Assembly (NCBI GenBank): GCA_951812855.1
Contig: OX638337.1
Location: 1,530,001 to 1,562,000, forward strand
Direction of reading: 5' to 3'
Length of the DNA: 32,000 nt
DNA from: an uncultured Lentisphaeria bacterium
GTDB taxonomy: Bacteria > Verrucomicrobiota > Lentisphaeria > JABSQK01 > JAJFLO01
The notes beneath the pieces are model-generated. The model worked only from the letters and a program-made list of their open reading frames with translations, made no database searches and was not told where the DNA came from. The translations under genes were made by a program, and so were the position numbers. Positions 13,312 through 32,000 of the stretch are shown piece by piece. Position 1 is the first letter of the stretch; every line of letters starts with the position of its first letter.

Positions 13312-13730
13312 ATGAAACCGGGAGTTTTAATAATTGACGATGATGTCAGCATTTTAACGGTGTTGAAATGCACTGCTTGACCGAGATGGTTTTGAAGTAA
13401 CGACCCTCGAAACCAGTAACAGGGATTAAATATTTTTCGAAACGAAGAATTTGACATGACCCTTTGCGATATCGTCATGAAATTAGTTGATGGAATCACT
13501 CTCCTGCAGCAGGGCCGGCAAATCGACTCGGATGATGTACCGATTATAATGATGACCGGTTTTCCAAAGATTGAAACAGCCAGTAAAGCAATGAAGCTCG
13601 GTACGTTTGATTATATTTGCAACCCCTTCAAAATGGATGAATTGCAATCAATGGCGATAAGGAAAAAGCAGCAAAAATGTTAGGTATTAGTTTAAGAGTT
13701 TTTGAGAAAAAATATGGAGATGAAAATTAA
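13312..13730 (+). pseudogene. Decayed response regulator: receiver domain with two frameshifts, fused to the tail of a Fis-type HTH (central domain missing)
   Basis: Frame a: MKPGVLIIDDDVSILTVLKCTA*. Frame b: LDRDGFEVTTLETSNRD*. Frame a again: GLNIFRNEEFDMTLCDIVMKLVDGITLLQQ...PIIMMTGFPKIETASKAMKLGTFDYICNPFKMDEL. A further shifted frame then gives EKAAKMLGISLRVFEKKYGDEN*, the classic end of NtrC/Fis HTH_8. Confidence 0.75.
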
Positions 13731-15819
13731 TATGCCTGAACAGACAGATGAATTAACCTTAATGGAAGAAACGTTACTGAAAATTACAGAAAACGATCAA
13801 GAAGCGATTAAAACGTTTTATGATTTATTAGACAGGTATAAAAATCAAGGTATTCCCGGCAGCCTAAAAACGGCTCTTTCGGAAAATATAAACTTAATAC
13901 TCGATGATATCGATTTTGTCGTATCGAATAATCCAATTCAAAAATTATTAATTGACCTGGCCGAGCTGGGAGTCGACACGTCGCAATTGCGTGATTGCCT
14001 GGCTGTTATCTTTCGAAATAAACAAGCCTCCTGCCCCGACCCCGCCGGCTTAATTCGATCACTTGGGGTATTCGATCAATCAATCAGTATTATTGAAGTA
14101 ATAAAAAGATGGAAAACATTTTCAATAATGAAAGAAAAATGCGTCATTTGGCACAACTCTTATGGAATAGGCCAAATTGAGGAAATAGATGTTCTGAGCG
14201 ACCTTGTGTATATCCAATTTCAAAGCAGGCAGTATCTTAGTTTAGCACAGGCAATGAATACATTATCAGTGGCGGTTGATGAATCGTTCATCAAACCAAT
14301 ACTTGAAAACACTGAAAATAATATCCGGGTACAGGAAGATTTTAAAGAGTTTGAAATTAATCTGACAAAGAGTTTTATTCCAAATTTGGCAAATCCCGGT
14401 TTGGTTATGGATACTTTGTTGTCATCCAAACGGATAAACAATTTAAATTTTAACGAATGGAAGCAAGGAAATTCGAATAACAAAAAACAAATTTCGAGAT
14501 CAAACAAACCAAGAGAATGGCGTCAGGCCCGAAGTCTGGAAGAATTGAAATTGTGTCTTCAGGGCTTAACTACAATTAAAGTAGGAAATGACGAGGCAAG
14601 TCATTTATTAAAACTTCATAAAATTGAGGCGGTTAAACCAAATTCGCTCGTTGCCTTCCGCGATACCCTTTCAACGTTGTGGGCATTATGCGGAAAACAA
14701 AACTGGCTTATAGACCTCATTGGTGAATTGCCAAACAATACCCTTATCTGGACTGATACTGACACATTCGTATCACTAACATGTAAACTTCCCACGAGAT
14801 TAGTCGCAAACTGGCTTACCGTTTCGTATTATGGAAATTCCAAAAAATGGTTACTCGAACAAATAACTCTGCTGCCTTTAAAATTTTGGCTTGCAGCTGA
14901 AAAAATATTGGCAAATCTTGAGATACCAAATCAGGAATTGCTGGACATCGCACATGTAAGACTTAAAGAGAAAACAGCCTCTGCTGATGTCGTTTTATGG
15001 CTTTGGAAACAAAAAAATCCAAAAATTAATGAGACCCTTGCAAATCATATTATTGTTTTCAAGATATTAGGCAAAAAAAGTAAGGGGGAATATGCAAAAG
15101 CTCAAAAAAAGTTATTTAAACTACTAATGAACGATCAAACCTTCCAGACTGTATTAATGGATAATGGAACCGAAAAAGGTATTAGCACATTTGTAAAAAC
15201 GATAAAAAATGTTCCCCTCCTAAACAAAGGAGAACAACAGAGCCTATTAGTAAAAATCTTGCGGATTTTCCCTGACGCACAATTATTAGTAGAAAATAAG
15301 AAAAAGGTTCTACCTAAAAAAGCGATAGAAAAAGTAACGTCTATAAGAAGTATCATTATCAAAGAGAATGAATTAGAAAATATTATAAACGAGAAAATTC
15401 CCCAAAACAGTGCCGCCATCGCCCATGCCAGAAGTTATGGCGATCTCCGTGAAAACGCTGAATATAAAGCCGCCAAAGAAGAGCAGCGATTACTGATGGT
15501 TAGACGGGGAGAACTTGAAAAAGGTCTCAAAGAAATTAAAGGAACGGATTACAGTGAAGTTGTTAAATTCGAATCTGTGATACCCGGATGCTCTGTTAAA
15601 ATAGAACTTGACAGCGGAAAAATGGAATCCTATCATATCCTCGGATTATGGGATAGTGTACCGGAAAAAAACATTCTTTCTTATGACACACCGATGGGCC
15701 GATTACTGTTAGGAAAAATTAAACAAGACCAAATTACGACACCACAGGGAAAATCTGCTGCAATCAAAGATATAACAAAACTCCCGGCGGAAATATTAGC
15801 CTGGGCAAAATCTGACTGA
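13714..15819 (+). CDS. greA: GreA-family transcript-cleavage factor with a ~550-aa N-terminal extension
   Basis: The last ~150 aa (AAIAHARSYGDLRENAEYKAAKEEQRLLMVRRGELEKGL...VIPGCSVKIEL...YHILG...ILSYDTPMGRLLLGK) are a canonical GreA coiled-coil tip plus C-terminal domain. The N-terminal extension has no motif I recognise. The start is uncertain: TTG 13702, ATG 13714 or ATG 13732. Confidence 0.8.
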   Translation: MEMKINMPEQTDELTLMEETLLKITENDQEAIKTFYDLLDRYKNQGIPGSLKTALSENINLILDDIDFVVSNNPIQKLLIDLAELGVDTSQLRDCLAVIFRNKQASCPDPAGLIRSLGVFDQSISIIEVIKRWKTFSIMKEKCVIWHNSYGIGQIEEIDVLSDLVYIQFQSRQYLSLAQAMNTLSVAVDESFIKPILENTENNIRVQEDFKEFEINLTKSFIPNLANPGLVMDTLLSSKRINNLNFNEWKQGNSNNKKQISRSNKPREWRQARSLEELKLCLQGLTTIKVGNDEASHLLKLHKIEAVKPNSLVAFRDTLSTLWALCGKQNWLIDLIGELPNNTLIWTDTDTFVSLTCKLPTRLVANWLTVSYYGNSKKWLLEQITLLPLKFWLAAEKILANLEIPNQELLDIAHVRLKEKTASADVVLWLWKQKNPKINETLANHIIVFKILGKKSKGEYAKAQKKLFKLLMNDQTFQTVLMDNGTEKGISTFVKTIKNVPLLNKGEQQSLLVKILRIFPDAQLLVENKKKVLPKKAIEKVTSIRSIIIKENELENIINEKIPQNSAAIAHARSYGDLRENAEYKAAKEEQRLLMVRRGELEKGLKEIKGTDYSEVVKFESVIPGCSVKIELDSGKMESYHILGLWDSVPEKNILSYDTPMGRLLLGKIKQDQITTPQGKSAAIKDITKLPAEILAWAKSD

Positions 15820-21100: not shown

Positions 21101-23311
21101 ATGAAAACTCTTTTCCTTTACTTCGTTTTTCGCCTGAGAATGCTTATCGCAGCCTTACTTCTTATGACAGGGCCACTGGTTTCTCAGGGGAAATCTGTCA
21201 AGGTAAATCATGTGGACGTTGAATTAGTTTCCGAAGGATTGTCGATTCAACCGGGGTATTCAATCAATGTCGGAATCCGTATGCAGATGGACGAACATTG
21301 GCATACTTACTGGATTAACCCTGGAGGAGAAGTTGGAATTCCCACAAAAATTTCATGGAATATGCCAAAAGGATTTGTCGCAGGGGAAATTCAATGGCCG
21401 TACCCGGAAAAGTTCGTTGATGCATTATTAGAGGATGAGCCGCCATTAATTAGTTATGGTTACCAAGGAGAAGTCTTACTTCGTACATCCATTGATGTAC
21501 CGGCCGATATCGCGGATTATTCAGAGGTACAGTTGAGTGCAACAGTCAGTTGGTTAGCATGTAAAACGATGTGCATTCCGGGATCCGCAGAGGTTCATCT
21601 TACCCTCCCGGTTACAAATCAAATTCCAAAGATTAATGAGCAATGGACGGGATTGTTTTCTCAAAGTGTTGAACGGATACCATTGAATCATTCTGAGTGG
21701 AATATAGAAGGAGTTTTGTCTGGTACCGATAAACTGACATTATTACTTGCTCCCCCCGAAGATATTAGTTCTTATAATGTCTCTGACATTTTTTTTATCC
21801 CGTTAAAATCGCAGAGTATAGTTGATCATTTACCACAGTCTTTAGTTCATAAGGAGGGTATTTATTCGTTAACAATTTCTATAAATCCAGAGAATGTTAA
21901 AATAAATGATTATATTGATGGAATATTGATTTCAAGAGAAGGCTGGCGTGGTCCTGATTCTGAAAAAGCATTACACATTAAAGTGCCAATCCTGGTATCT
22001 TCTACGTTCGATAAATCAACAGAAATAACAAATTTCGATTCTTATTCACCACCACGCGGAGTAACTCTGAGTTTGACGCCGGCTCTTATCTCGGCATTTA
22101 TAGGTGGCTTTATTTTAAATTTGATGCCATGTGTTTTGCCAGTGCTCTCATTAAAAGTACTGAGTCTCATCAAGAAAGCCGGTGAAGATAAATCCAGAAT
22201 TTGGAAACATGGTATTGTTTTTACGGGTGGTGTTCTGATTTCATTTTGGTTTATTGCCGGCATCATGATGGTTTTACGAATGGCTGGTCAGACCGTGGGG
22301 TGGGGTTATCAACTTCAATCACCGGCGTTCTTAGTTATTTTAATCTTATTTCTTTTCTTAATGAGTTTAAATCTGTTCGGGGTGTTTGAAATTGGTACAC
22401 GTTTGATTGGGCTTGGATCAAAGGCAGCACATCGATCAGGGTATATAGGGTCATTTTCAACAGGTGTCGTCGCAGTCATCGTTGCGACACCATGTATGGC
22501 ACCATTTATGGGAAGTGCAATTGCCTATGCAATTATTCAACCGCCAATTGTTGCCGCATTAGTTTTTACGTTTTTAGGTCTTGGCCTTGCTGCCCCATAT
22601 CTATTATTATCCTGTTTTCCTTCTCTATTGAAATTTGTCCCGAAGCCCGGTGCATGGATGGAATCATTCAAACAACTTATGGGGTTTCCGTTAATGGGAA
22701 CTGTTGTTTGGCTGTTATGGGTATTAGGTCGACGAAGTAACATAGATATCGTTGGCCATGTAATGGTATCGTTAGTCATCATGGGTTTAGCTGCCTGGAT
22801 ATTGGGTCGATGGGGAACGCCTGAGCGTTCAATGAATACTAAACGAAGAGCTTATTTGGTGTTTATTGTTTTAGTAAGTCTTGGTATATATTATGATTTG
22901 AAAATTATCAATTCAACATTGAATGATCGTGAACGTAATGCGTTAAAAATTGGTTCACGAGATCATGGACCATACTGGCAGCCCTTCACGGGAAAAAAAC
23001 TGAATCGTTTAAGAGCAGAAGGAAAACCTGTTTTTATCAATTTCACTGCCGATTGGTGCCTGACCTGTAAGGTAAATGAAAAAATAGCGTTAAATAAACC
23101 GGTACTCGATCAATTTATTGCAAATGGTGTTACGTTATTAAAAGCAGATTTTACCAGTCACAGCCCTGAAATCGCTAATACACTGGCAGGTTATGGTCGA
23201 ACTGGGGTGCCGTTATACGTCTTTTATGGCCAGGGAGTTGACAAGAAACCGCAGCTATTACCTCAGCTTTTAACAAAACGGATGGTTTTAGCTGTGTTAG
23301 AAACGAATTAA
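21101..23311 (+). CDS. DsbD/ScsB-family thiol:disulfide interchange (protein-disulfide reductase) membrane protein
   Basis: N-terminal periplasmic DsbD_N-like domain (HWHTYWINPG...LACKTMCIP), a central DsbD transmembrane core (LNLMPCVLPVLSLK ... ATPCMAPFMG) and a C-terminal thioredoxin fold (FTADWCLTCK). The track ORF starts at 21050, but the signal-peptide-like start MKTLFLYFVF is at 21101. Confidence 0.85.
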   Translation: MKTLFLYFVFRLRMLIAALLLMTGPLVSQGKSVKVNHVDVELVSEGLSIQPGYSINVGIRMQMDEHWHTYWINPGGEVGIPTKISWNMPKGFVAGEIQWPYPEKFVDALLEDEPPLISYGYQGEVLLRTSIDVPADIADYSEVQLSATVSWLACKTMCIPGSAEVHLTLPVTNQIPKINEQWTGLFSQSVERIPLNHSEWNIEGVLSGTDKLTLLLAPPEDISSYNVSDIFFIPLKSQSIVDHLPQSLVHKEGIYSLTISINPENVKINDYIDGILISREGWRGPDSEKALHIKVPILVSSTFDKSTEITNFDSYSPPRGVTLSLTPALISAFIGGFILNLMPCVLPVLSLKVLSLIKKAGEDKSRIWKHGIVFTGGVLISFWFIAGIMMVLRMAGQTVGWGYQLQSPAFLVILILFLFLMSLNLFGVFEIGTRLIGLGSKAAHRSGYIGSFSTGVVAVIVATPCMAPFMGSAIAYAIIQPPIVAALVFTFLGLGLAAPYLLLSCFPSLLKFVPKPGAWMESFKQLMGFPLMGTVVWLLWVLGRRSNIDIVGHVMVSLVIMGLAAWILGRWGTPERSMNTKRRAYLVFIVLVSLGIYYDLKIINSTLNDRERNALKIGSRDHGPYWQPFTGKKLNRLRAEGKPVFINFTADWCLTCKVNEKIALNKPVLDQFIANGVTLLKADFTSHSPEIANTLAGYGRTGVPLYVFYGQGVDKKPQLLPQLLTKRMVLAVLETN

Positions 23312-23323
23312 GAAAGAAGACCA

Positions 23324-23956
23324 ATGAGTTCTATTTCAAATCGAACAGGTATTGTATTTGTAATTTCTGGTCCGAGTGGAACTGGAAAGTCTTCGATTTG
23401 TCATCGCGTATTGGAAGTCGATCCGTTATTGCATTTTTCTGTGTCATGCACCACAAGACAACCTCGAAAAAATGAAATTGATGGTAAAGACTACTTTTTC
23501 ATGTCAAAAAAATTGTTTCAAGAGCACATATCCAATGACCATTTTTTAGAATACGCCGAAGTTCACGGGAATTTTTATGGGACGCTGGATTCGGAAATTG
23601 ACCGAATAACCAATAACGGGGAAGATATTTTGTTGGATATTGATATTCGGGGAGTAAAAAATATCCAGAAGAAATATAAATCCTTATCCAAACCGATAAA
23701 CTGTCACTACATATTCGTTGGCCCACCGTCATTTTCAGAACTGGAAGACCGATTAAGATCCAGAGGAACCGAGTCGGAAGATGTTATTGTTCAGCGAATG
23801 AACACCGCAAAAACAGAGTTAACTCACTGGCGAAATTTTGATTCGATTATAGTTAACTCAAACCTTGATGATTCCATCAATAATTTGAAAATGATCATTC
23901 AAGCCCAGCGGTTAAGCAGAAATGTTCTCCTGACAGACCCGTGGGAAATTAATTAA
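23324..23956 (+). CDS. gmk: Guanylate kinase
   Basis: 210 aa. P-loop ISGPSGTGKSS, then SCTTRQPRKNEIDGKDYFF and EYAEVHGNFYGT. Confidence 0.92.
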   Translation: MSSISNRTGIVFVISGPSGTGKSSICHRVLEVDPLLHFSVSCTTRQPRKNEIDGKDYFFMSKKLFQEHISNDHFLEYAEVHGNFYGTLDSEIDRITNNGEDILLDIDIRGVKNIQKKYKSLSKPINCHYIFVGPPSFSELEDRLRSRGTESEDVIVQRMNTAKTELTHWRNFDSIIVNSNLDDSINNLKMIIQAQRLSRNVLLTDPWEIN

Positions 23957-24260
23957 GTTGGAAATAGTCATTTGACAATTCTGCAATTAAGTCCGGGTTC
24001 GATGCTTTTTTAAGCAATAAATGTCATCCCGCACCCGAGAATTAACAGGATTATGATCTCGCCGATAACCCAGGATTTCCTTTTGATTTTTAAGAACATC
24101 AGGAACAAATAATTTAGAGCCAATCGCAACACCTTTGGTGGCAAATCTAACCCGGAGCATCATTCGATTTGACCATTGGAGCTTAAATCCAACAAGAAAA
24201 CACTCAGGGAAAAGTTGATATTTTTTATTTTCCCGATTTAATTGTGGTTAATTTAGTGTC

Positions 24261-24817
24261 TTCTCAAAGGGGTGTCTACTATTTTTTGCTGTATAATTCA
24301 ATCTCTTTTTTTAATTTTTTAATTCTTTTAGTATTCTCTCTCTTTTTGTCCGTAAAGCATCCCAGTCTACTTCCCAAACAGTGCCATCAGAGAAACGAGC
24401 CTTCACTATACCAGCAATGCCTGTGGCAAATTTTAAGCCTCCGTCTGCAGTGTCTAACCATACTTCATATCCATTTCCATCTGGCGGGATATCTTCAATG
24501 GAAAATCCATTTATGCCATTAATATGTTCATTCCATATATCATAACTAACAAAACCGATTGCTAACGCTACAATGGTTTTTTCACTTGTATTTTTATATT
24601 CAGCGTAATGTATAATTCCTTCTTTTATGAAAAGGTCGCCTTCTTGATAAGCAGCTGTATATGATGTAATTTTTAAAGGTGCCCGGCTTTGTTCAATTAT
24701 TTTTGTAACCGGTTCGATTGCCCATGCATAGGATGCCGTCATTATGGCAATTAACAGAACAGCGATATTTGTTTTCATAATTTCTCCTTATTTGTTGTTT
24801 GTTGGATTTAAGCGATT
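24261..24817 (-). repeat. Direct repeat copy A (cassette carrying the 155-aa secreted protein)
   Basis: Aligns with 27921..28490 at an offset of 3660 nt. 24264..24335 is a 72-nt block identical to 27924..27995 (47 nt non-coding plus the last codons). The signal-peptide end is also near-identical, while the middle is diverged. Confidence 0.9.
24311..24778 (-). CDS. Secreted 155-aa protein of unknown function, paralog 1
   Basis: Sec-type signal peptide MKTNIAVLLIAIMTASYAWA|IEP and AAGGAG upstream of the ATG. 125/155 residues are identical to 27971..28438 by hand alignment. Confidence 0.8.
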   Translation of the reverse strand: MKTNIAVLLIAIMTASYAWAIEPVTKIIEQSRAPLKITSYTAAYQEGDLFIKEGIIHYAEYKNTSEKTIVALAIGFVSYDIWNEHINGINGFSIEDIPPDGNGYEVWLDTADGGLKFATGIAGIVKARFSDGTVWEVDWDALRTKRERILKELKN

Positions 24818-24891
24818 GTGATTTTTAAATTCAAAAAAATCTTCGGGTGTACCAGAGTCAGCCAGGAACAGTACCGTTTGGTAATTTTTTA

Positions 24892-25659
24892 TCATGCCGC
24901 TAAATCTTCCCTTATATCTTCTCGTTCAGACCATTTAACCGGCTTGAGATTATAGTTTTTCAAAGCGGATATAGTCGATTCTGAAACGCCTGTATCCGTA
25001 TCATTTAAAACGGCATAAAGTTGTGTGTCCGGCTCTCTTGTCTCTCGTGTATCCAGCCATTTGAACATTAAATTTTCGGCAGTGTTTTTTTGGGGACTGT
25101 TAATTGCCTGCACAATACGTTCGGGTTGTTGACGTGATTTTGGAATAATAAAATCAAATAAATGGTCGTATCCGCTTTTGCCAGTAAATTTAATCTTTGG
25201 CGTATAACGAATCTCCACCGAACCCAGCCACTGTGTGACATCTTCATAGAATAAGCTGGCGACATGCGGTGAGGCCAGATAAAACAAATCATTGATTGCA
25301 AGCATGGCCTGGACAAGATTATGTTTTTTCAGAGAGAAATTTTCTGATGTCGCCTTGACCAATAATTGATTGTTGTCCAGTTCCACACCAAATCTGGTCA
25401 AAGTAGTTTTCAGTATTGCCTGGCGTTTTTTGCTTTCTGGAAAACAGCCGGAAAGCCTTAAATCGTTGATGATGTACCCGTCATCTGTCAACAGGTATCC
25501 ACCATTTTCCTTGCACACATAAAATTGCAAACAATCATTATGACGATCAAGGTGTGGGGTGGTTACCTGCACACAGTCGCTGCCAATCCGGCGTAGCACT
25601 GTTTTATCTTTCAGCCAGACGATATAGCGATCAAGCAATGTTTGGATGTCGTCTATCAT
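24892..25659 (-). CDS. DUF1828 (N-terminal) + DUF1829 (C-terminal)-type protein, function unknown
   Basis: 255 aa. [16 protein letters not shown]...[12 protein letters not shown] and [18 protein letters not shown]...LNDTD match my memory of the DUF1828/DUF1829 architecture. Its start overlaps the stop of the upstream ORF by 4 nt. Confidence 0.65.
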
Positions 25660-26099
25660 GCGAATAGCCCCCCATCAATAACAGGTTTTTTAACAATAGC
25701 ACAATAATTCATAAAGGCATCAAGCAAGCCTAAAATATCGCTATCGCTGATTCCCGCAAGTTCGCTCGGCAATGGACATGCCCACTTATCACCAAGGCCT
25801 TCCCGATATAAATGGAGATGAGGACATTCAAGCTCTTCGCCATCAGGATTGCGGTGGGGTGGTCCTGCCAAATCCAGACGCACCAGAATGATTGTTTGTC
25901 GTGCTCTGGTCTGAAAAGTATTTTTCTTAAGTGAAATCCGACCCCTGGTAATATCAAGAGAAAATTCTTCCCTTTTATCAAGTGAATGTAATGGCAGGCG
26001 TAATGAGCCTCCCAGGCTGGGAAAATCAAAGCGACCTGTCGAACCAAAATAGTGCTTTTCCATGGCTAACAGGGCATCGGCTTTATGTTGGGTTAACAA
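25656..26099 (-). CDS. Small conserved-looking hypothetical protein (147 aa), partner of the DUF1828/1829 gene
   Basis: ORF with TTG start (AGGAGAG about 12 nt upstream) or internal ATG. Distinctive motif [31 protein letters not shown]-type overlap with the downstream gene. No family assigned with confidence. Confidence 0.6.
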
Positions 26100-26153
26100 T
26101 ATTACTTGCTACTCTCCTTTCCTGGTAAGGCTTAAACAGTGCTAATCCAGAAA

Positions 26154-26206
26154 TCTCGCGGCCTTGGACACCACGGGTTTTTGCCTAATCATACCAGGCC
26201 GCGAGA
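26154..26206. other. Strong GC-rich hairpin in the 300-nt non-coding leader of the DUF pair
   Basis: tctcgcggccttgg (26154-26167) pairs with ccaggccgcgaga (26194-26206): 13 bp with one bulged T and a 26-nt loop. Confidence 0.6.
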
Positions 26207-26408
26207 CCAGCAATATCGCACTCCTGTGCCCGTTTGGTTAATAAAGGTCTTAAGCTATCAAGCAGGACTTTTTCTTTCTGGCCTTTTGCTTTCCAGCCAA
26301 GCTATCCGCTAATCAGGCCTTAAAATAAGTGGTTTTAATGGATGCTATCGCAAATAAAACGCTTTTCTACTCTCATTAATGATTTTTGATGTCAGAGTTT
26401 ATCCGCTA

Positions 26409-26468
26409 TTTTAACGACCGAACTCAGCGGCTGCCGTCAGGCAATTCCGCTGGAGTGCCTTGTTAGGA
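26409..26468 (-). other. attC-like recombination site candidate 1 (60 bp)
   Basis: Minus strand: TCCTAAC-AAGGCA-CTCCAGCGG-(16 nt)-CCGCTGAG-TTCGGTC-GTTAAAA. This gives an inverse-core ..YTAAC, an imperfect inner palindrome with one extra base, and a core GTTRRR. The RDD stop codon TAA lies inside the TAAC. Confidence 0.55.
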
Positions 26469-26912
26469 ATTTTCTGACTTTATAACATAAGTGCCTGCCA
26501 TTATATCGTGAAGCCCTTGCTTCTTTTTTGTCCATCCGACCATCATACACCCGATACCGAGAATTAACCCCGAAAGGAGCAGAGCGAAATATCGCCCAGT
26601 AGCTCTGCCAAATGAAATGCGATTTCCTTTCTCATTAACAACCTTCAATCCAACCGCCTTTTTTCCTACAGATGCCTGCCATTTTGAAGAATGTAAGACT
26701 GCAAGATATACCCACCAAACAATCAGGGAGTGCATAGACTCTACGATTACTTGCTCTATTTCATCAGTTGCGGGGGTCACAGAACGAGATAGAAATGAAA
26801 TAAGCAAAACTGGGATAATCAGAACTACTGAATCAATAAAGCAAGCTCCAACTCGTATCCAGAAGCCCCCAAACTGGATTGCTTCGTTAATTTCATGAGT
26901 TGGTTGATTCAT
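26463..26912 (-). CDS. RDD-family membrane protein
   Basis: 149 aa. GGFWIRVGACFIDSVVL, SVGKKAVGLKVVNEKGNRISFGRATGRYF and KKQGLHDIMAGTYVI are the RDD-family signature with three TM spans. Confidence 0.8.
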   Translation of the reverse strand: MNQPTHEINEAIQFGGFWIRVGACFIDSVVLIIPVLLISFLSRSVTPATDEIEQVIVESMHSLIVWWVYLAVLHSSKWQASVGKKAVGLKVVNEKGNRISFGRATGRYFALLLSGLILGIGCMMVGWTKKKQGLHDIMAGTYVIKSENS

Positions 26913-26932
26913 TGTTGCTCCTTATAGTTTGA

Positions 26933-27060
26933 TACCTAATGCCAAGCTCAGCGGCAGCTAACCTCCCAGAAACTCCATAGAAACGGCCAAGTTTGAATTC
27001 TACAATAAATTCAAAAAAACTAACGGGTCAGCCATCCGCTGAAGTGCTTTGTTAGAAGGT
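26933..27060 (-). other. attC-like recombination site candidate 2 (128 bp)
   Basis: Minus strand: ACCTTCTAAC-AAAGCA-CTTCAGCGG-(~85 nt)-CCGCTGAG-CTTGGCA-TTAGGTA. It has the same conserved arms as site 1 with a longer variable centre, and starts 5 nt after the TIR-like gene stop. Confidence 0.55.
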
Positions 27061-27065
27061 TTATA

Positions 27066-27464
27066 TTATACATCATTCACTGCTTTTTTAATGGAGTCTT
27101 CAGCAAATGACATAGCCCAAGAAGTATCAACGCCATATAAATTGTCAGGTGTTGTATTTGTGCTACTCGTTTTTACAGTCACGATTTTTTTATTTAATTC
27201 AACTGCCTTATCGATTTCCCATTCTACCCAATCGCTTTTATGAGTTTTTTCTCCAACAATGCAGAGAAAGTAAGTTGCATTATTAATTTTGGCAGATATT
27301 GCTCGTTTAATTACTGTCGCGTTGGTACTTTTGATGGATACATCTGCAGAATGGTCATGAAAACTAAAATCAAATGTTCCGTTCGCATCCCATGCCTTCA
27401 ATAAATTTTTGTAGTGTTTGTCGTTATTGTAATCATAACTTATAAATATCTTTTTCTTAGCCAT
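27066..27464 (-). CDS. TIR-like protein (MTH538/DUF1863, ThsB-like)
   Basis: 132 aa. KKIFISYDYNND...YFLCIVGEKTHKSDWVEWEIDKAVELNKKIV matches the MTH538 TIR-like pattern (FISY..D, vliG..T..S.WV.WEI) including the conserved Glu. The start is 2 nt after the SLATT-like stop. Confidence 0.7.
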   Translation of the reverse strand: MAKKKIFISYDYNNDKHYKNLLKAWDANGTFDFSFHDHSADVSIKSTNATVIKRAISAKINNATYFLCIVGEKTHKSDWVEWEIDKAVELNKKIVTVKTSSTNTTPDNLYGVDTSWAMSFAEDSIKKAVNDV

Positions 27465-27466
27465 TT

Positions 27467-27886
27467 TTATTTATCCTTTATTTGTTTAATATAAATATTC
27501 CAATTGGAATTTTCCTTTGAAATTAAAGCCTCTGTAGTAGCAACAAGCATTTTAAAAGAATCTTCGCCATCATACGGCCTGGACTCAGTTTGGTATAAAT
27601 ATTTATGATGTTTAAGGCTTTCTGATGTGGTTCTATATTGTATCCATATCTCTTGAAATTTGTTTATTGATATTATTCCAGCAACAATCGCAATACAAAT
27701 ACCTAGTAGAGCAACGATAATTTGGTTCGTTTCAGAAGCATAACAAGCCAAAAAAGGAATTGTTGCAGCTGCTGATATTTCAAAAATACGCAGAGACTTA
27801 AACCAAAGTTGGGCACGGTTGCTTTTTTTGCTATACCAATCAATTTGGTCATCTATTCTCTGTTTAATGTATTCTTCCTGCTCCAT
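27467..27886 (-). CDS. DUF4231/SLATT-family two-transmembrane protein
   Basis: 139 aa. N-terminal helix with DWYSKKS, two hydrophobic spans (ISAAATIPFLACYA; IVALLGICIAIVAGIISI), then WIQYRTTSESLKHHKYLY. This topology and motif order is typical of DUF4231/SLATT. Confidence 0.65.
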   Translation of the reverse strand: MEQEEYIKQRIDDQIDWYSKKSNRAQLWFKSLRIFEISAAATIPFLACYASETNQIIVALLGICIAIVAGIISINKFQEIWIQYRTTSESLKHHKYLYQTESRPYDGEDSFKMLVATTEALISKENSNWNIYIKQIKDK

Positions 27887-27903
27887 TTTTTTTCTTACTA
27901 TTG

Positions 27904-27912
27904 CCTTCTAAC
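27904..27912 (-). other. Cassette-start core GTTAGAAGG (inverted copy of the R''-like end of attC-like site 2)
   Basis: The plus strand reads ccttctaac here and gttagaagg at 27051-27059, so a perfect 9-nt inverted repeat brackets the SLATT/TIR pair. Confidence 0.6.
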
Positions 27913-27920
27913 ATTTAATA

Positions 27921-28490
27921 TTTTCAAAGGGGTGTCTACTATTTTTTGCTGTATAATTCAATCTCTTTTTTTAATTTTTTAATTCTTTTAGTATTAACCC
28001 TATTTTTGACGATAAAGCATCATAGTCTGCTTCCCAAACAGTTCCATCAGAGAAACGAACCTTCACTATACCAGCAATGCCTGTGGTAAATGCGAAGCCT
28101 CCGTCTGCAGGGTCTAACCATACTCCATTTCCATTTCCATCCGGCGGGATATCTTCAATAGAATATCTAGGCATGCTATTAATATGTTTATTCCAGATAT
28201 CAAAACTAAAAAAAGCGATTATTAACGCTACAATGGTTTTTCCACTTGTATTTTTATATTCAGCGTAATGTCTAATTCCTTCTTTTGTGAAAAGGTCGCC
28301 TTCTTGATAAGCAGCTGTATATGATGTAATTTTTAAAGGGGCCCCGCTCTGTTCAACTATTTTTGTAACCGGTTCGATTGCCCGGGCATAGGATGCCGTC
28401 ATTATGGCAATTAACAGAACAGCGATATTTGTTTTCATACTTTCTCCTTAATTATTAGAGTTGGATTTGGTGTTGTTGCATTTAAGCGAC
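27921..28490 (-). repeat. Direct repeat copy B (cassette carrying the 155-aa secreted protein)
   Basis: See copy A. The 5' flanks share tcgcttaaat(g/c)caacaa and contain indels. Confidence 0.9.
27971..28438 (-). CDS. Secreted 155-aa protein of unknown function, paralog 2
   Basis: Signal peptide MKTNIAVLLIAIMTASYARA|IEP and AAGGAG RBS. 30 substitutions and no indels relative to paralog 1. Confidence 0.8.
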   Translation of the reverse strand: MKTNIAVLLIAIMTASYARAIEPVTKIVEQSGAPLKITSYTAAYQEGDLFTKEGIRHYAEYKNTSGKTIVALIIAFFSFDIWNKHINSMPRYSIEDIPPDGNGNGVWLDPADGGFAFTTGIAGIVKVRFSDGTVWEADYDALSSKIGLILKELKN

Positions 28491-28562
28491 TTCAAATCCT
28501 TGTTGTTTATTTAAGATATTGAAAAGAATTTATCTCTCTTATTCATTTTTTTAATAAACAAT

Positions 28563-28724
28563 TCAAGACTTAATTTTCTTTTTATTCAATGCATCGACTA
28601 AATCATTTAAATACTTTTTAGTTTCCTCATCTGTTTTCCTATTTTCTATCTCAATAATAATAGGATCATATTCTCTGTTATTATCGACATATACTTTTTT
28701 ACTTTTCCATTTACAAAGGGGCAT
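28563..28724 (-). CDS. Small ORF (53 aa), hypothetical; below the track's size cut-off
   Basis: My translation: MPLCKWKSKKVYVDNNREYDPIIIEIENRKTDEETKKYLNDLVDALNKKKIKS*. It lies on the same strand as the array and begins right after a copy of the boundary motif. It is followed by an A/T hairpin (28503-28514 / 28551-28561). No clear RBS. Confidence 0.3.
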   Translation of the reverse strand: MPLCKWKSKKVYVDNNREYDPIIIEIENRKTDEETKKYLNDLVDALNKKKIKS

Positions 28725-28727
28725 TTA

Positions 28728-28750
28728 CGAAGGGGTGTCCGCTATTTTAA
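28728..28750 (-). repeat. Third copy of the cassette-boundary motif AAAATAG(YR)RGACACCCCTTYG
   Basis: The plus strand cgaaggggtgtccgctattttaa compares with caaaggggtgtctactatttt at 24265-24285 and 27925-27945. The half-motif tccgctattttaac also occurs at 26402-26415, where it forms the R'-like end of attC-like site 1. Confidence 0.7.
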
Positions 28751-28759
28751 AAAAGAGAA

Positions 28760-28987
28760 ATGAAGAACAATGGAATAGAATTACCCGAAAAGATAGTCTC
28801 GAATCACTACGTCGATATGGAGACTCTGCAAAAACAAATATATGAAAATTATCGACAGAATATTTCGCACGACATTGTTCTTGATGGGAATGCTAGAGTC
28901 GATAACGCCGAAAACATTCTAAAGCTCTTGATGCGACTTGTTCAATGTGTATCAAACCCGGTGTTGGTTGACGAGTCCTACTTATAA
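28760..28987 (+). CDS. Hypothetical 75-aa protein (only plus-strand ORF in the accessory block)
   Basis: ORF with AAGAGAA immediately before the ATG. Its 3' end overlaps the methyltransferase 3' end convergently by 6 nt. No recognisable motif. Confidence 0.35.
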   Translation: MKNNGIELPEKIVSNHYVDMETLQKQIYENYRQNISHDIVLDGNARVDNAENILKLLMRLVQCVSNPVLVDESYL

Positions 28988-30154
28988 AGATGTCTCACAG
29001 ACAGAGCGCATTATATCGTTAGCTATATGTTCACCAATAAACTTTGCCACTTTTGGCGGAATAGCATTACCAATCAGTGTTGCCGAGAGCTGTAAATTGT
29101 CTTCAGGATAAAAAACGTAACTTTTTGGAAAGGTTTGCAACATAGCGCCTTCCCTTATCGAAAGTGCCCGATTCTGGTTGACATCAAAATGTCCAAAGCG
29201 CCCGTTAGTAATCGATAGAAATTTTGTTGTGATCGTCGGAGAAACACAATCTTCAGCCATACGGGTATAGGTATCGCTAAAAGAAGGATTTTTCATTTTA
29301 TTATGGCAATACAAAGACAGATCACCGTAAGGAGTGTTCTTCAAATAGCCGTTTGTCTCACCAGGGATGGCAGAAGAAATGCGTTTCAAATTAAGATCGC
29401 TGAGCGAGCGCGTTCGATGATTACGTATTCTCGGATGGGCTTGTCCGGCGGTCAATGGCGGCAGACCACCAATAACATCGCCTACGGTTCGAGGTTTTGC
29501 TCTCTTGTTTTTTTCAGGAATAGCAGGAGACATTGAAAATTTCTTTTTTCTATAACCCATAATAATGGTTCTTCTTCTGTTTTGAGCAACGCCAAAATTC
29601 TTTACATTAATTATTTTCACATCAACCATATACTTCAATGAATCAAGTTCATCTGTAAAACATTTCAGTATTTCAATATCCTGATCTCGTTTACAGATAC
29701 CTTCAACATTTTCACAGACAACTGCGTCAGGCCGCAATGCTTTGATAACACCCAATGAGGCTGGCAATAAGTCTTTATCCCTGCTTCGGTCAGAGTATCT
29801 TTTGCGCGACAATTCAATTTTAGTAATTCTTGTAAATGGCTGACACGGCGCACATATCGCCAGCAAAAGAATATCACCATTTTTTTTTGCATAACCGCGT
29901 TTTTTTAAACATTGTTTCAGTGCCTTAATAGCAATCTCCTGCTGTCCTTCCGGATAGTTTTCCGTATTCTGAAACAAATCAAACGCCATAAAGTCGGGCA
30001 CCGAGCCATCACAATTTTTATTCTGGCTATACGTTTTTCTGCATCTTTCTTCTTTATCAACACCAGCAACAACCACATAGCCTGCATTCGCAAGACCACA
30101 GGTCATTCCACCAGCGCCACAAAACAAATCGATCACAAATTTCCTCATAGTCAC
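28982..30154 (-). CDS. dcm: DNA (cytosine-5) methyltransferase
   Basis: 390 aa with all C5-MTase motifs: I DLFCGAGG, IV APCQPFT, VI ENV, VIII QNRRR, IX REGAMLQTFP, X GNAIPP. Start is GTG 30154 (overlapping the upstream stop) or ATG 30148. Confidence 0.93.
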   Translation of the reverse strand: MTMRKFVIDLFCGAGGMTCGLANAGYVVVAGVDKEERCRKTYSQNKNCDGSVPDFMAFDLFQNTENYPEGQQEIAIKALKQCLKKRGYAKKNGDILLLAICAPCQPFTRITKIELSRKRYSDRSRDKDLLPASLGVIKALRPDAVVCENVEGICKRDQDIEILKCFTDELDSLKYMVDVKIINVKNFGVAQNRRRTIIMGYRKKKFSMSPAIPEKNKRAKPRTVGDVIGGLPPLTAGQAHPRIRNHRTRSLSDLNLKRISSAIPGETNGYLKNTPYGDLSLYCHNKMKNPSFSDTYTRMAEDCVSPTITTKFLSITNGRFGHFDVNQNRALSIREGAMLQTFPKSYVFYPEDNLQLSATLIGNAIPPKVAKFIGEHIANDIMRSVCETSL

Positions 30155-32000
30155 GATCCGTCTTCGCCACCTAACACATTAATGATTGAAAGTATATAAG
30201 GTGCCATCGCCTGCGAACTTTTTTCTGCCTGTGAATCTGCATCGTCTGGATTTTCTGTTTCATCATAATGTCTATACACAGCCAAAGTTAAAAATCCGAG
30301 GCATATTCTAAAGCGATTTTCATTCAATTTTATGGCCGCTTCATCGTTTCCTAATCTCATTTCTTCTAAACGTTCATGGTCTCTATTTACATAAACCATT
30401 AGCCCTTCTTCTGAGTTAATGACTTTTGCTCCAGATTTTTCATCGAAACCGTATTCATCCCAATTAGATTTTTCTGCCCATTGCGTAGGGTCGGCTATTT
30501 GTGGCTTCTCTGTGTTTTTTGTATCAGATTTTGTTGTGCCCCCAGATTTTGCAGGATTTTCTTCGGGTGTGATCTTTATCTTTATAGGGACTGTTAAAGG
30601 AACAGGTCGCGGGCCGTGATCGTCAAAACCAATTTCAAAATCGATAACATCGCCAACTTGTTTATGTTTTGGAACCGAAACAGTAAATGTTGCCGTTCCA
30701 TTGCGCAGGCTGGCGCTTCTTGGCAGATCTGCACTCGTCAATGAACACTTCACCCAGCCAGGGCTGTTGGTTCTGGAAAGATAATCATCGGCGGCATCTG
30801 TGCCACATTTTATTTTTCGGTTTGCATTGACGGGAACTTCTTTTAAAAAATATTTATTTTGCCCTTCTTTGACAGGAGTCAAATTCAGAGGGTTTAAAAA
30901 AGTAGGGAATTTCTTTCCTTCATACAACTCTGTTCCTCTTGGAGTTTTTATCGTTTTAATCGCCGCATTTCCAAAACCAAGAAGTTCTTTTATCATAGGA
31001 TCTCGTGCAATAAAATCGTTAAGCATTTTTTGGGTTTCTTCATCATTTTCAATTTTTTCTTTTGCCCGCCGCAGGCGAATAATTTTTGCGTATTGTTTTA
31101 GTTTAGAATCGTCTTTCAAGCGATCTTTTACCAATTTTTTCAACTCTCGGGATAGGTTGTTAATTATCATCCGCTCACGATCACCCATAAATATTGTTAA
31201 GGCATCTCTGTTCATTTCCTCACATTGAACGTTAATGATAAGGTGATTTTGAAGATCTCCGAGCTTTACGCTGTTCAGCAAGCCCGCATTTTCTGTTGCG
31301 TGAGTTTGGCCGTTGATAGTGTAAAATACACGCTTCCTGCTGTTCTCCATATAGTTGGGAAGTTTGCTAACGCCTGTAGCGATAATTCTAACTTTTCCCA
31401 ATTCAGGATTGGATAAGTCATCTTCGACCAAATGAACAAATTCAGTGGTTCCTTTTGCTGGAGCCTCAGTTGGAATTTCCGGATCTTGATTAGAAGGATC
31501 TGCAAACTCGGCATTGAGTATCACACTCATACCGCTAAATGTGCGATCTGCGATACCTTGTGCTCTGCGTTTTCCTTTCCCTTGTGTTAGTTTGGCATCA
31601 AAATCATATAAGCGAATTGGCAATGCACAATCCAAAAGATTCAGATTCAGCGCGTAATAAAGCCCGAAATCAACACCATGCGCGCCATCTCCTATGTCGT
31701 AATCAAACAATCTTACAACCGAACCTTGTGCTATCAATCCAATTTCCTTATCACCAAAAGACGGTATTGTGGAGGCTTTGAATTGTGGAATTTTGTCATC
31801 AGGTGCCAAATATTCGACGGTTGGCAGTTTTTTACCCTCCTTTATTTTCGGGACGCGAATCAAACTCCAGCCCCAGCTATCAGAATTTCGTTTTTTGCTG
31901 ACTATCAGTTTATAGTGCGGCTTGTCCGATTCTGAGCAAAACCGGATTGAACCGGTTGACCCCATATTGAACTTTCCCTGAACAAAGCCAATACCTTCTT
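30151..32000 (-). CDS. Large protein, N-terminus off-window; possible GHKL/MORC-like ATPase with a long uncharacterised C-terminal region
   Basis: The track starts at Met 31965, but my translation of 32000-31966 gives EGIGFVQGKFN with no stop, so the frame is open to the window edge. GKFNMGSTGS resembles the GxFGxG ATP-lid box of HATPase_c_3/MORC proteins. The remaining ~600 aa have no motif I recognise. Its stop is within 2-4 nt of the dcm start. Confidence 0.5.
   Translation of the reverse strand, partial: EGIGFVQGKFNMGSTGSIRFCSESDKPHYKLIVSKKRNSDSWGWSLIRVPKIKEGKKLPTVEYLAPDDKIPQFKASTIPSFGDKEIGLIAQGSVVRLFDYDIGDGAHGVDFGLYYALNLNLLDCALPIRLYDFDAKLTQGKGKRRAQGIADRTFSGMSVILNAEFADPSNQDPEIPTEAPAKGTTEFVHLVEDDLSNPELGKVRIIATGVSKLPNYMENSRKRVFYTINGQTHATENAGLLNSVKLGDLQNHLIINVQCEEMNRDALTIFMGDRERMIINNLSRELKKLVKDRLKDDSKLKQYAKIIRLRRAKEKIENDEETQKMLNDFIARDPMIKELLGFGNAAIKTIKTPRGTELYEGKKFPTFLNPLNLTPVKEGQNKYFLKEVPVNANRKIKCGTDAADDYLSRTNSPGWVKCSLTSADLPRSASLRNGTATFTVSVPKHKQVGDVIDFEIGFDDHGPRPVPLTVPIKIKITPEENPAKSGGTTKSDTKNTEKPQIADPTQWAEKSNWDEYGFDEKSGAKVINSEEGLMVYVNRDHERLEEMRLGNDEAAIKLNENRFRICLGFLTLAVYRHYDETENPDDADSQAEKSSQAMAPYILSIINVLGGEDGS

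Follow-up and report, generated by a model that had tools for sequence, protein, structure and literature searches.

Probable integron cassettes without a nearby integrase in an lpdA-gmk island of an uncultured Lentisphaeria bacterium

We analysed a 32,000-nt stretch of DNA from an uncultured Lentisphaeria bacterium (GenBank assembly GCA_951812855.1, contig OX638337.1, positions 1,530,001 to 1,562,000; hereafter the window), in which a preliminary description had placed an array of integron-type gene cassettes, with attC-like recombination sites and no visible integrase, at 24261-28750. As described there, eight consecutive short open reading frames (ORFs) occupy the minus strand; we place them between 24311 and 28724, including one doubtful 53-aa ORF, with spacers that range from overlaps to 363 nt. 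They belong to a 10-kb island between the housekeeping genes lpdA and gmk, which border it directly on both sides, and nearly all island genes share one strand. Read left to right along the cassette strand, the island consists of lpdA, a degenerate motif of a repeat that we call D2, a short ORF ending in a site named attC0, a 162-aa lipoprotein gene, a 101-aa lipoprotein gene with D2, a 70-aa ORF, a 782-aa protein gene, a Dcm methyltransferase gene, a reversed SNF2 fragment, D2, the 53-aa ORF, a 155-aa paralog (paralog 2) with D2, a bare G↓TT (the arrow marks the crossover point) followed by cassette 1 and attC B, cassette 2 and attC A, the first half of a D2 with a 309-nt leader, the PDC-M24A and PDC-M24B genes, paralog 1 with D2, and gmk on the opposite strand (Table 1). 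In assembly ENA ERZ18545485, an alternate contig matches window 22684-32000 at 100% identity, and the 1.94-Mb circular primary contig (ptg000035c) is 97.9% identical; the cassettes are present on both haplotypes (contigs L042 and L043), whose differences concentrate in the two 155-aa paralogs.

Table 1. Coordinates of island features, given as window positions unless contig L043 is named
Feature	Position	Strand	Content and basis
Cassette 1 (972 bp)	26940-27911	-	SLATT/DUF4231 gene (27467-27886), ThsB-like TIR gene (27066-27464) and attC B; Pfam, PADLOC
attC B (124 nt)	26934-27057	-	Ends the SLATT-TIR cassette; covariance model full length, arms align to attC A
Upstream junction G↓TTAGAAGG	27904-27912	-	9/9 complement of the attC B R'' side; upstream DNA not attC
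Cassette 2 (525 bp)	26415-26939	-	RDD-family membrane protein gene (26463-26912) and attC A; Pfam
attC A (60 nt)	26409-26468	-	Ends the RDD cassette; covariance model and fold
Downstream junction G↓TTAAAATAGCGGATA	26400-26415	-	attC A core, then directly the first half of a D2 repeat
attC0	L043 2037-2095 (window-equivalent ~33969-34027)	as attC A and B	Third attC of the same family; 61.9 bits, best of the three
Unit 3	24892-26408	-	309-nt leader, DUF6978 gene (25656-26099), DUF1828/DUF1829 gene (24892-25659); Pfam, PADLOC
Possible attC remnant	24820-24890	-	Left and inner part of a B-like attC (TGGCTGAC ... CCGAAGATTTTTTTGAATTTA), low confidence; local alignment
Direct repeat, copy 1	24261-24815	-	155-aa secreted-protein gene (24311-24778), 3′ tail ending in D2
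Direct repeat, copy 2	27921-28489	-	Paralogous 155-aa gene (27971-28438), 3′ tail identical to that of copy 1, with D2; directly upstream of cassette 1
D2 copies in the window	28723-28748, 27920-27945, 24260-24285, 26400-26412 (half)	-	Repeat search
D2 copies outside the window	L043 3210-3238 and 1867-1893		Within the lpdA-gmk island
C-5 cytosine methyltransferase gene	28982-30154	-	Not a cassette by any test here; Pfam, PADLOC
782-aa protein gene	30151 to beyond 32000 (L043 3565-5913)	-	Not a cassette by any test here
SNF2-like fragment, 75-aa ORF	28760-28987	+	Last ~60 residues of the Pfam SNF2-related domain, E 6e-5

Two of the spacers, attC A and attC B, share a 22-nt left arm, (C/T)CTAACAA(G/A)GCACT(C/T)CAGCGGA, and a 14-nt right arm, GCCGCTGAG(T/C)T(C/T)GG. 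When the window was searched with mismatches allowed, the left arm YCTAACAARGCACTYCAGCGGA occurred only at 26446-26467 and 27035-27056 (up to three mismatches; 0.00 expected from shuffles) and the right arm GCCGCTGAGYTYGG only at 26418-26431 and 26942-26955 (0.18 expected); the arms have zero copies in the 24-kb flanking chromosome and stand only at the 3′ ends of cassettes. Between the arms, the centres of the two sites are unrelated and their lengths differ. Specifically, attC A has the boxes R'' (TCCTAAC), L'' (CTCCAGCGG, in which an additional C corresponds to a G that bulges from the bottom strand), L' (CCGCTGAG) and R' (GTTAAAA). In attC B, R'' (TTCTAAC) and L'' (CTTCAGCGG) lead into a long imperfect stem whose variable centre measures 66 nt, followed by the same L' and by an R' of ATTAGGT, so that the core reads ATT for GTT with an A in place of the canonical G. 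Pairing of CT(C/T)CAGCGG with the L' box leaves one base unpaired, and in the DNA fold of the attC A bottom strand AAC pairs with GTT and one G is bulged; the spacer between the R and L boxes is an unpaired 6 x 7 nt loop. The folding z-scores of the isolated elements are modest, at -0.7 to -2.1, and no T-run stands 3′ of either one. An R box, an unpaired spacer, an L box with an extrahelical base and an inner stem-loop make up the textbook architecture of an integron attC site. The preliminary description had already drawn attention to the shared arms, the unrelated centres of differing length and the single unpaired base of the inner palindrome, and had proposed the bottom-strand fold as a check; on all four counts our analysis agrees with it.

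The same arms recur far outside this genome. A scan of one genome per GTDB species with a 20-mer left-arm query (CTAACAARGCACTYCAGCGG) yielded 39 loci, in Gammaproteobacteria, Spirochaetaceae, Nitrospirota, Planctomycetota, Elusimicrobia, Thermodesulfobacteriota, Verrucomicrobiae, Cyclobacteriaceae and a Bathyarchaeia metagenome-assembled genome (MAG). Among the 35 distinct sites (33 foreign and the two of the window), all continue with CCGCTGAG, a 6-7-nt spacer and GTT(A/R), the ATT variant being found in attC B and in the family member L019; none of this right-hand part belonged to the query. AAC and GTT pair in 28 of the 29 aligned foreign sites, the bulged C is kept in 29/29, and family members are 55-138 nt long. 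In the 29 short foreign sites the proposed structure leaves 92% of cells paired, against 24-53% when the partners are slid by one to three columns, and four pairs of the inner stem show compensatory changes, with a covariation score of 0.125 vs 0.062 in shuffles, none of 500 of which reaches it.

From these sites we built two covariance models that contain no window sequence, R1 from the 29 short foreign sites and R2 from 71 sites, long ones included, that R1 recovered from the loci. R1 matches attC A with 59.3 bits (E 8e-15) and attC B only partially (28.3 bits, 27018-27057), whereas R2 matches attC A with 54.3 bits (E 2e-12) and attC B over its full length with 49.6 bits (E 3e-11). A compact 40-nt version of attC B (27018-27057), a pseudo-site of R1, was dropped because R2 aligns the full 124 nt. 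The matches of these foreign-site models fall near the minus-strand coordinates at which attC-model hits had been predicted. With filters off, R2 gave no match in the 32-kb window beyond A and B better than E 0.45; one at 28900-28946 (10.6 bits, E 1.3), just past the methyltransferase gene, lies inside the opposite-strand SNF2-like coding remnant and was set aside as chance. Rfam, which holds no attC family, returned only a tRNA-Pro at its gathering thresholds. Elsewhere the family forms co-oriented arrays with cassette-like spacing (five sites in locus L012, six in L024, four in L015, three in L017 and six in L051). Divergently transcribed integron integrases adjoin arrays in L006, L009 and L017, at 409-462 bits against the TIGR02249 cut-off of 265, and L044 likewise encodes one (426 bits on TIGR02249), divergent beside its array. 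R''/R' cores, a bulged L''/L' palindrome, a variable centre and an association with arrays and integrases are thus all present at the level of sequence, on which footing we regard 26409-26468 and 26934-27057 as genuine attC sites. In a Halieaceae MAG (OZ242189.1, loci L002 and L004), two copies of the left arm are broken after CAGCGGAC and run into an ORF that we take to resemble IS3-family OrfA, which suggests that an insertion sequence (IS) entered attC sites of that genome.

The units that these sites bound have the size, ends and relatives of cassettes. Measured from G↓TT to G↓TT they span 972 and 525 bp, as first reported, and the variation in G+C noted between cassettes is real (0.34 in the SLATT-TIR cassette and 0.43 in both the RDD cassette and the DUF pair of unit 3, with 0.386 in the 24-kb flank). 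At the start of cassette 1, GTTAGAAGG (27904-27912, minus strand) is complementary at every position to CCTTCTAAC in its own R'' arm (27051-27059, minus strand), the sole two occurrences in the window; the start of the RDD unit, ATTAGGTA, is complementary to its own end, TTCCTAAC, at 6/8 positions. The RDD stop codon (TAA, 26463-26465) sits inside CCTAAC, the R'' of attC A. All three features had been read from the sequence beforehand and are unchanged by our analysis.

Cassette 1 encodes a two-transmembrane SLATT/DUF4231 protein without a match among PADLOC models and a TIR protein that matches ThsB-like PADLOC models (best E 2e-19). A relative of the SLATT protein (P0003, 88% identical) occurs on contigs L044-L049, all of which encode the same SLATT+TIR pair, and a complete integron in L044 has this pair as its first cassette. 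At the DNA level cassette 1 is 84% identical to L044 over 899 nt (window 27921-27023) and homologous also to L045-L049. The alignment starts exactly at GTTAGAAGG, with unrelated DNA upstream, which places the boundary of homology at the GTT core, where the preliminary description had expected indel boundaries. The window and L044 share R'' and the spacer at the 3′ end; the L boxes and loop then differ with their pairing kept, and the attC of the same cassette measures 57 nt in L044 vs 124 nt in the window. Past the GTT of that site, the next cassettes differ between L044/L049 and L045-L048.

The RDD protein has relatives at 73-80% amino-acid identity whose source names are Verrucomicrobia, Chlorobiales and Candidatus Thiosymbion. 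Its cassette shares 81% DNA identity, including the 5′ leader TTAGG(T/C)ATC..AGGAGCAACAATG, with one in L051/L053, where the RDD gene lies within a six-attC array and the protein cluster is named Verrucomicrobia. The leader begins G↓TTAGGCATCGAACCATGAGGAGCAACAATG in L051/L053 vs A↓TTAGGTATCAAACTATAAGGAGCAACAATG in the window and is conserved from TTAGG; the junction homologous to attC B reads GTTAGGC in L051, and the R'' of the L051 cassette itself (GCCTAAC) is 8/8 complementary to its start. In a Chlorobiales MAG (L055/L056), an 86% identical RDD cassette stands alone with a single attC beside the ATP synthase operon. Because the same cassettes recur in integrons and arrays of unrelated bacteria with breaks at the core, we conclude from these comparisons that the SLATT-TIR and RDD units are cassettes circulating among phyla. 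Predicted from its domains, the SLATT-TIR module, with TIR as the enzyme and SLATT as the membrane effector, looks like an anti-phage system of the abortive-infection type.

Neither Pfam searches of all large window ORFs nor the island gene map from L042/L043 revealed an integron integrase domain, and tblastn with four IntI proteins against the window, L042 and L043 gave only E > 0.3, with no trace of an intI pseudogene in ~36 kb. The reported lack of a visible integrase therefore holds for the window and for ~4 kb beyond it. An intI or attI had been expected beyond the high-coordinate side; it is not there, and one further attC is found instead before the island ends at lpdA. This site, attC0, lies 280 nt past lpdA and marks the island's far edge; it is ~2 kb beyond the last position of the window and 6.9 kb upstream of the A/B pair, and ends a ~58-codon ORF whose stop codon falls inside R'' (GTATAAC). 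In place of an intI/attI/Pc layout, a co-oriented 155-aa gene and D2 stand upstream of cassette 1, so the locus is not a complete integron. IntegronFinder defines a CALIN (attC sites clustered without an integron integrase) as at least two attC within 4 kb and no intI (PMC4889954). Here two minus-strand attC sites lie less than 4 kb apart with no integron integrase nearby, and attC0 would count under the 4-kb clustering rule as a separate single attC site (SALIN); judged by these positions, we classify the locus as a two-site CALIN with a lone attC at a distance.

We consider it very probable that 26409-27912 comprises two bona fide integron cassettes within an integrase-less lpdA-gmk island, forming a two-site CALIN. 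The CALIN-like array first proposed has come through each of the tests named to challenge it, or a surrogate for them, with its extent reduced: the two attC-bounded cassettes at 26415-27911 stand, and cassette status is not shown for the other six ORFs of 24261-28750. The locus resembles described CALINs and SALINs (PMC4889954; bioRxiv 10.1101/2022.09.11.507474) in its small size, its two co-oriented attC sites ~0.5 kb apart, its non-resistance cassettes and the lack of a nearby intI, an adjacent intI pseudogene or an IS, and 1362 of 2961 CALINs likewise hold two cassettes (PMC4889954 / bioRxiv 10.1101/2022.09.11.507474). It does not differ from them in kind; particular to it are the bare G↓TT junction beside an island-specific repeat and the G-to-A change in a core. 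With classical attC sites (59-base elements), A and B share the R''-L''...L'-R' plan, RYYYAAC and GTTRRRY cores, an extrahelical base on the L'' side of the bottom strand, an unpaired spacer, a variable centre, a stop codon in R'' and a cassette start complementary to its own R''. They differ in the ATTAGGT of attC B and in arms unusually alike despite unrelated centres.

The cassettes are set beside repeats. D2 opens with AAAATAG(C/T)(G/A)GA(C/T)A and continues with CCCCTT(T/C)G(A/T)AAAT, present singly or as two tandem copies. Every D2 is on the cassette strand, usually just past the stop codon of a small gene, and the repeat is found solely between lpdA and gmk, where it marks unit boundaries. 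The third full copy, AAAATAGCGGACACCCCTTCGTAAAT at 28723-28748, abuts the SNF2-like fragment, and the two haplotypes have different numbers of tandem copies. We found no D2 in Joint Genome Institute metagenomes and none in the 39 integron loci. As a degenerate attC it was rejected, having only AGCGGA in common with the attC family, no fold and no covariance-model match. Two of the D2 copies end direct repeats of ~555 bp and ~90% identity that bracket the two cassettes and unit 3; the last ~85 nt of the repeats are identical and their coding parts differ by ~12%. The encoded 155-aa paralogs carry a signal peptide and a weak, sub-threshold DUF5780 match. Nowhere else do the two haplotypes diverge as much as in these segments, a pattern suggestive of diversifying selection or gene conversion. 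Paralog 1 is flanked by a perfect 15-nt inverted repeat, GCTTAAATCCAACAA / TTGTTGGATTTAAGC, at 24181-24195 and 24799-24813 (33 nt at 76%), and a related sequence also lies upstream of paralog 2; the inverted repeat could delimit a small unit that is mobile or was duplicated.

Downstream of the cassettes, unit 3 encodes a candidate defence system, its DUF6978 and DUF1828/1829 proteins being called by PADLOC as PDC-M24A (E 2e-54) and PDC-M24B (E 2e-106). DUF1829 has recently been implicated in defence (PMC13092281). In L009, a homologous pair together with a RelA/SpoT-like gene forms an attC-bounded cassette adjoining IntI, and the unit of the window may be a former third cassette that has lost its attC. 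R2 gives no match at the end of unit 3. The alignment of 24820-24890 to a B-like attC scores 29 against a shuffle mean of 15.9 (0/1000 reach it); 2 of 538 real window segments equal it and no covariance model matches there. The 309-nt leader upstream of DUF6978 is non-coding and contains a GC-rich imperfect hairpin at 26150-26205 (GGTCTCGCGGCCTGG...CCAAGGCCGCGAGA; 14-15 bp, one bulged base, a 26-nt loop, z ~-2.7), which may be a regulatory element or a terminator. This hairpin, flanked by ACCAAAC...GTTTAAG, was tried as a divergent third attC and rejected, its arm spacing misfitting the R/L layout and no covariance model matching.

IntI recognises the folded bottom strand of attC, excises cassettes as circles by attC x attC recombination and inserts them with a crossover at the G↓TT core. 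By this established biology, the bottom strand of each site in the window would fold into an R box, an unpaired spacer and an L box with an extrahelical G, and an IntI would bind such a hairpin, excise the cassette circle and insert it at a G↓TT core. Our preferred account, held tentatively and at somewhat less than even confidence, is that the two cassettes entered as one circle, through recombination of attC A and an ordinary GTT in the genome, of the attG type, by an integrase supplied in trans. Such an insertion would explain why cassette 1 begins at a bare G↓TT beside non-attC DNA and why attC A is joined to island sequence downstream. The DNA upstream of cassette 1 contains neither attC nor attI and consists of the paralog 2 tail with D2, whose last letters are ...TTAAATG; the pre-insertion target would read ..AAATG↓TTAAAATAG.., giving an empty site of ...AAATGTTAAAATAGCGG... 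and an lpdA-gmk allele of ...CCCCTTTGAAAATATTAAATGTTAAAATAGCGGATAAAC.... Insertions at attG sites with a GWT core have been shown experimentally and proposed as a source of small CALINs and SALINs, and many two-cassette CALINs lack intI pseudogenes and transposable elements (bioRxiv 10.1101/2022.09.11.507474). In common with those insertions (Loot et al., bioRxiv 10.1101/2022.09.11.507474), the cassettes here are joined to genomic DNA at a GWT, with no upstream att site and no integrase in cis; unlike them, the event is one that we infer, the Escherichia coli/IntI1 CRGM motif is absent and two cassettes would have moved as one unit. Since the integrase is absent in cis, the cassettes would now be fixed, and the G-to-A change in the attC B core probably cripples separate excision of cassette 1.

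Several observations weigh against this account. The reconstructed target has a GWT core and lacks the CRGM right-hand motif of IntI1 attG hotspots, a genome with the empty site was not found, both haplotypes in the sample (L042 and L043) being occupied, and the integrase search covered ~36 kb of a 1.94-Mb genome. Furthermore, the three co-oriented attC sites within 7.6 kb would fit a decayed array equally well, as would the PDC-M24-like pair, which is a cassette elsewhere and here precedes a possible attC remnant. It is possible, if somewhat unlikely, that the whole lpdA-gmk island is the relic of a complete chromosomal integron, whose intI and attI were deleted and most of whose attC sites were eroded or deleted to leave three. 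The spread of those sites and the single orientation of nearly all genes suit such a relic, as do the attC-bounded PDC-M24-like pair of L009, the possible remnant past the DUF pair, the degraded ATT core of attC B and the 6/8 complementarity of the RDD R'' with its start against 8/8 in L051. A relic sits poorly, however, with the lack of any intI pseudogene trace in 36 kb, the clean G↓TT upstream of cassette 1 beside a D2 that is not attC-like, the D2-ended units without any attC signal even with filters off, and the housekeeping genes that directly bound the island.

An extension of the preferred in-trans insertion, which we think unlikely, would make the locus a natural record of two cassettes inserted in trans at a non-att GTT, in a small 1.9-Mb genome that may be integron-free, with D2 as the preferred landing or boundary site. 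D2 (AAAATAGCGGAYA + CCCCTTYGWAAAT) would then flank both attC-bearing insertions and end several other small gene units, giving the island a second type of modular boundary that is not attC. Alternatively, a rearrangement might have split the fragment from an active integron elsewhere in the 1.94-Mb chromosome, leaving the cassettes still exchangeable. In about half of cases a CALIN shares its replicon with an IntI gene (Cury et al., PMC4889954), and the present attC sites are in a good state of preservation, scoring 50-62 bits, but no IS or transposase adjoins the sites in the island, and we judge this history improbable. Very doubtful is the broad proposal that all eight minus-strand ORFs of 24261-28750 are cassettes of a single array: the ORFs are small and share one orientation, and G+C varies between units, but the window contains only two attC with filters off, the two 155-aa genes are paralogous direct repeats tailed by D2 and not by attC, and the 53-aa ORF overlaps D2. 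Finally, the notion that the elements are generic palindromes, such as repetitive extragenic palindromes (REPs), miniature inverted-repeat transposable elements (MITEs) or terminators unconnected to integrons, is compatible with their modest folding scores but is effectively excluded because the family forms co-oriented arrays beside TIGR02249 integrases across phyla, and neither the copies outside the island that the preliminary description had named as a sign of REPs or MITEs (none in 32 kb), nor a T-run after either element, nor cassette homology that ignores the GTT core was seen.

The remaining island genes may add to its defence content. The 782-aa protein has no match among Pfam, NCBIfam and PADLOC families, and its gene shares a 4-nt overlap with that of the Dcm methyltransferase. 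The N-terminal ELITNAIDA of the protein resembles a GHKL ATPase motif, and the protein may be a restriction or effector partner of the methyltransferase. The SNF2-like fragment has the appearance of a truncated helicase gene; it abuts a D2 copy and overlaps the methyltransferase gene at its end, and its cut at D2 indicates a past rearrangement in this part of the island. Judged by these annotations, the island is largely a defence island of known and candidate defence genes. Outside it, at window 13702-15819, a 705-aa protein with a GreA/GreB domain at its C-terminus only resembles long GreA fusion proteins, with weak NCBIfam matches to PRK14720 and PRK06330.

Integron cassettes are known to store defence systems (Darracq et al., bioRxiv 10.1101/2024.07.02.601686), and the present locus likewise carries a compact two-gene module with a ThsB-like TIR as a cassette, near a type II methyltransferase and PDC-M24. 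SLATT/TIR is unmentioned in the main text of that study (bioRxiv 10.1101/2024.07.02.601686), and a literature search for SLATT with integron returned author-name matches only. A ThsB-like TIR is common to this module and Thoeris, in which ThsB is paired with ThsA, a SIR2 or Macro protein bearing a SLOG sensor-effector; here the partner of the TIR protein is SLATT/DUF4231 and the island has no ThsA, so the module is not Thoeris. What is known of integrons is unchanged by the locus, which is a further example of the known CALIN class, and its main unexplained feature is the island-specific D2. The comparisons above indicate that integron cassettes, a candidate anti-phage module of TIR+SLATT among them, pass between phyla and become lodged in chromosomes without a nearby integrase. 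They also nominate the SLATT-TIR pair and PDC-M24 as defence candidates, and one cassette that at 84% DNA identity is both the first cassette of a complete integron and an orphan at a bare G↓TT would offer a clean natural test case for the attG route.

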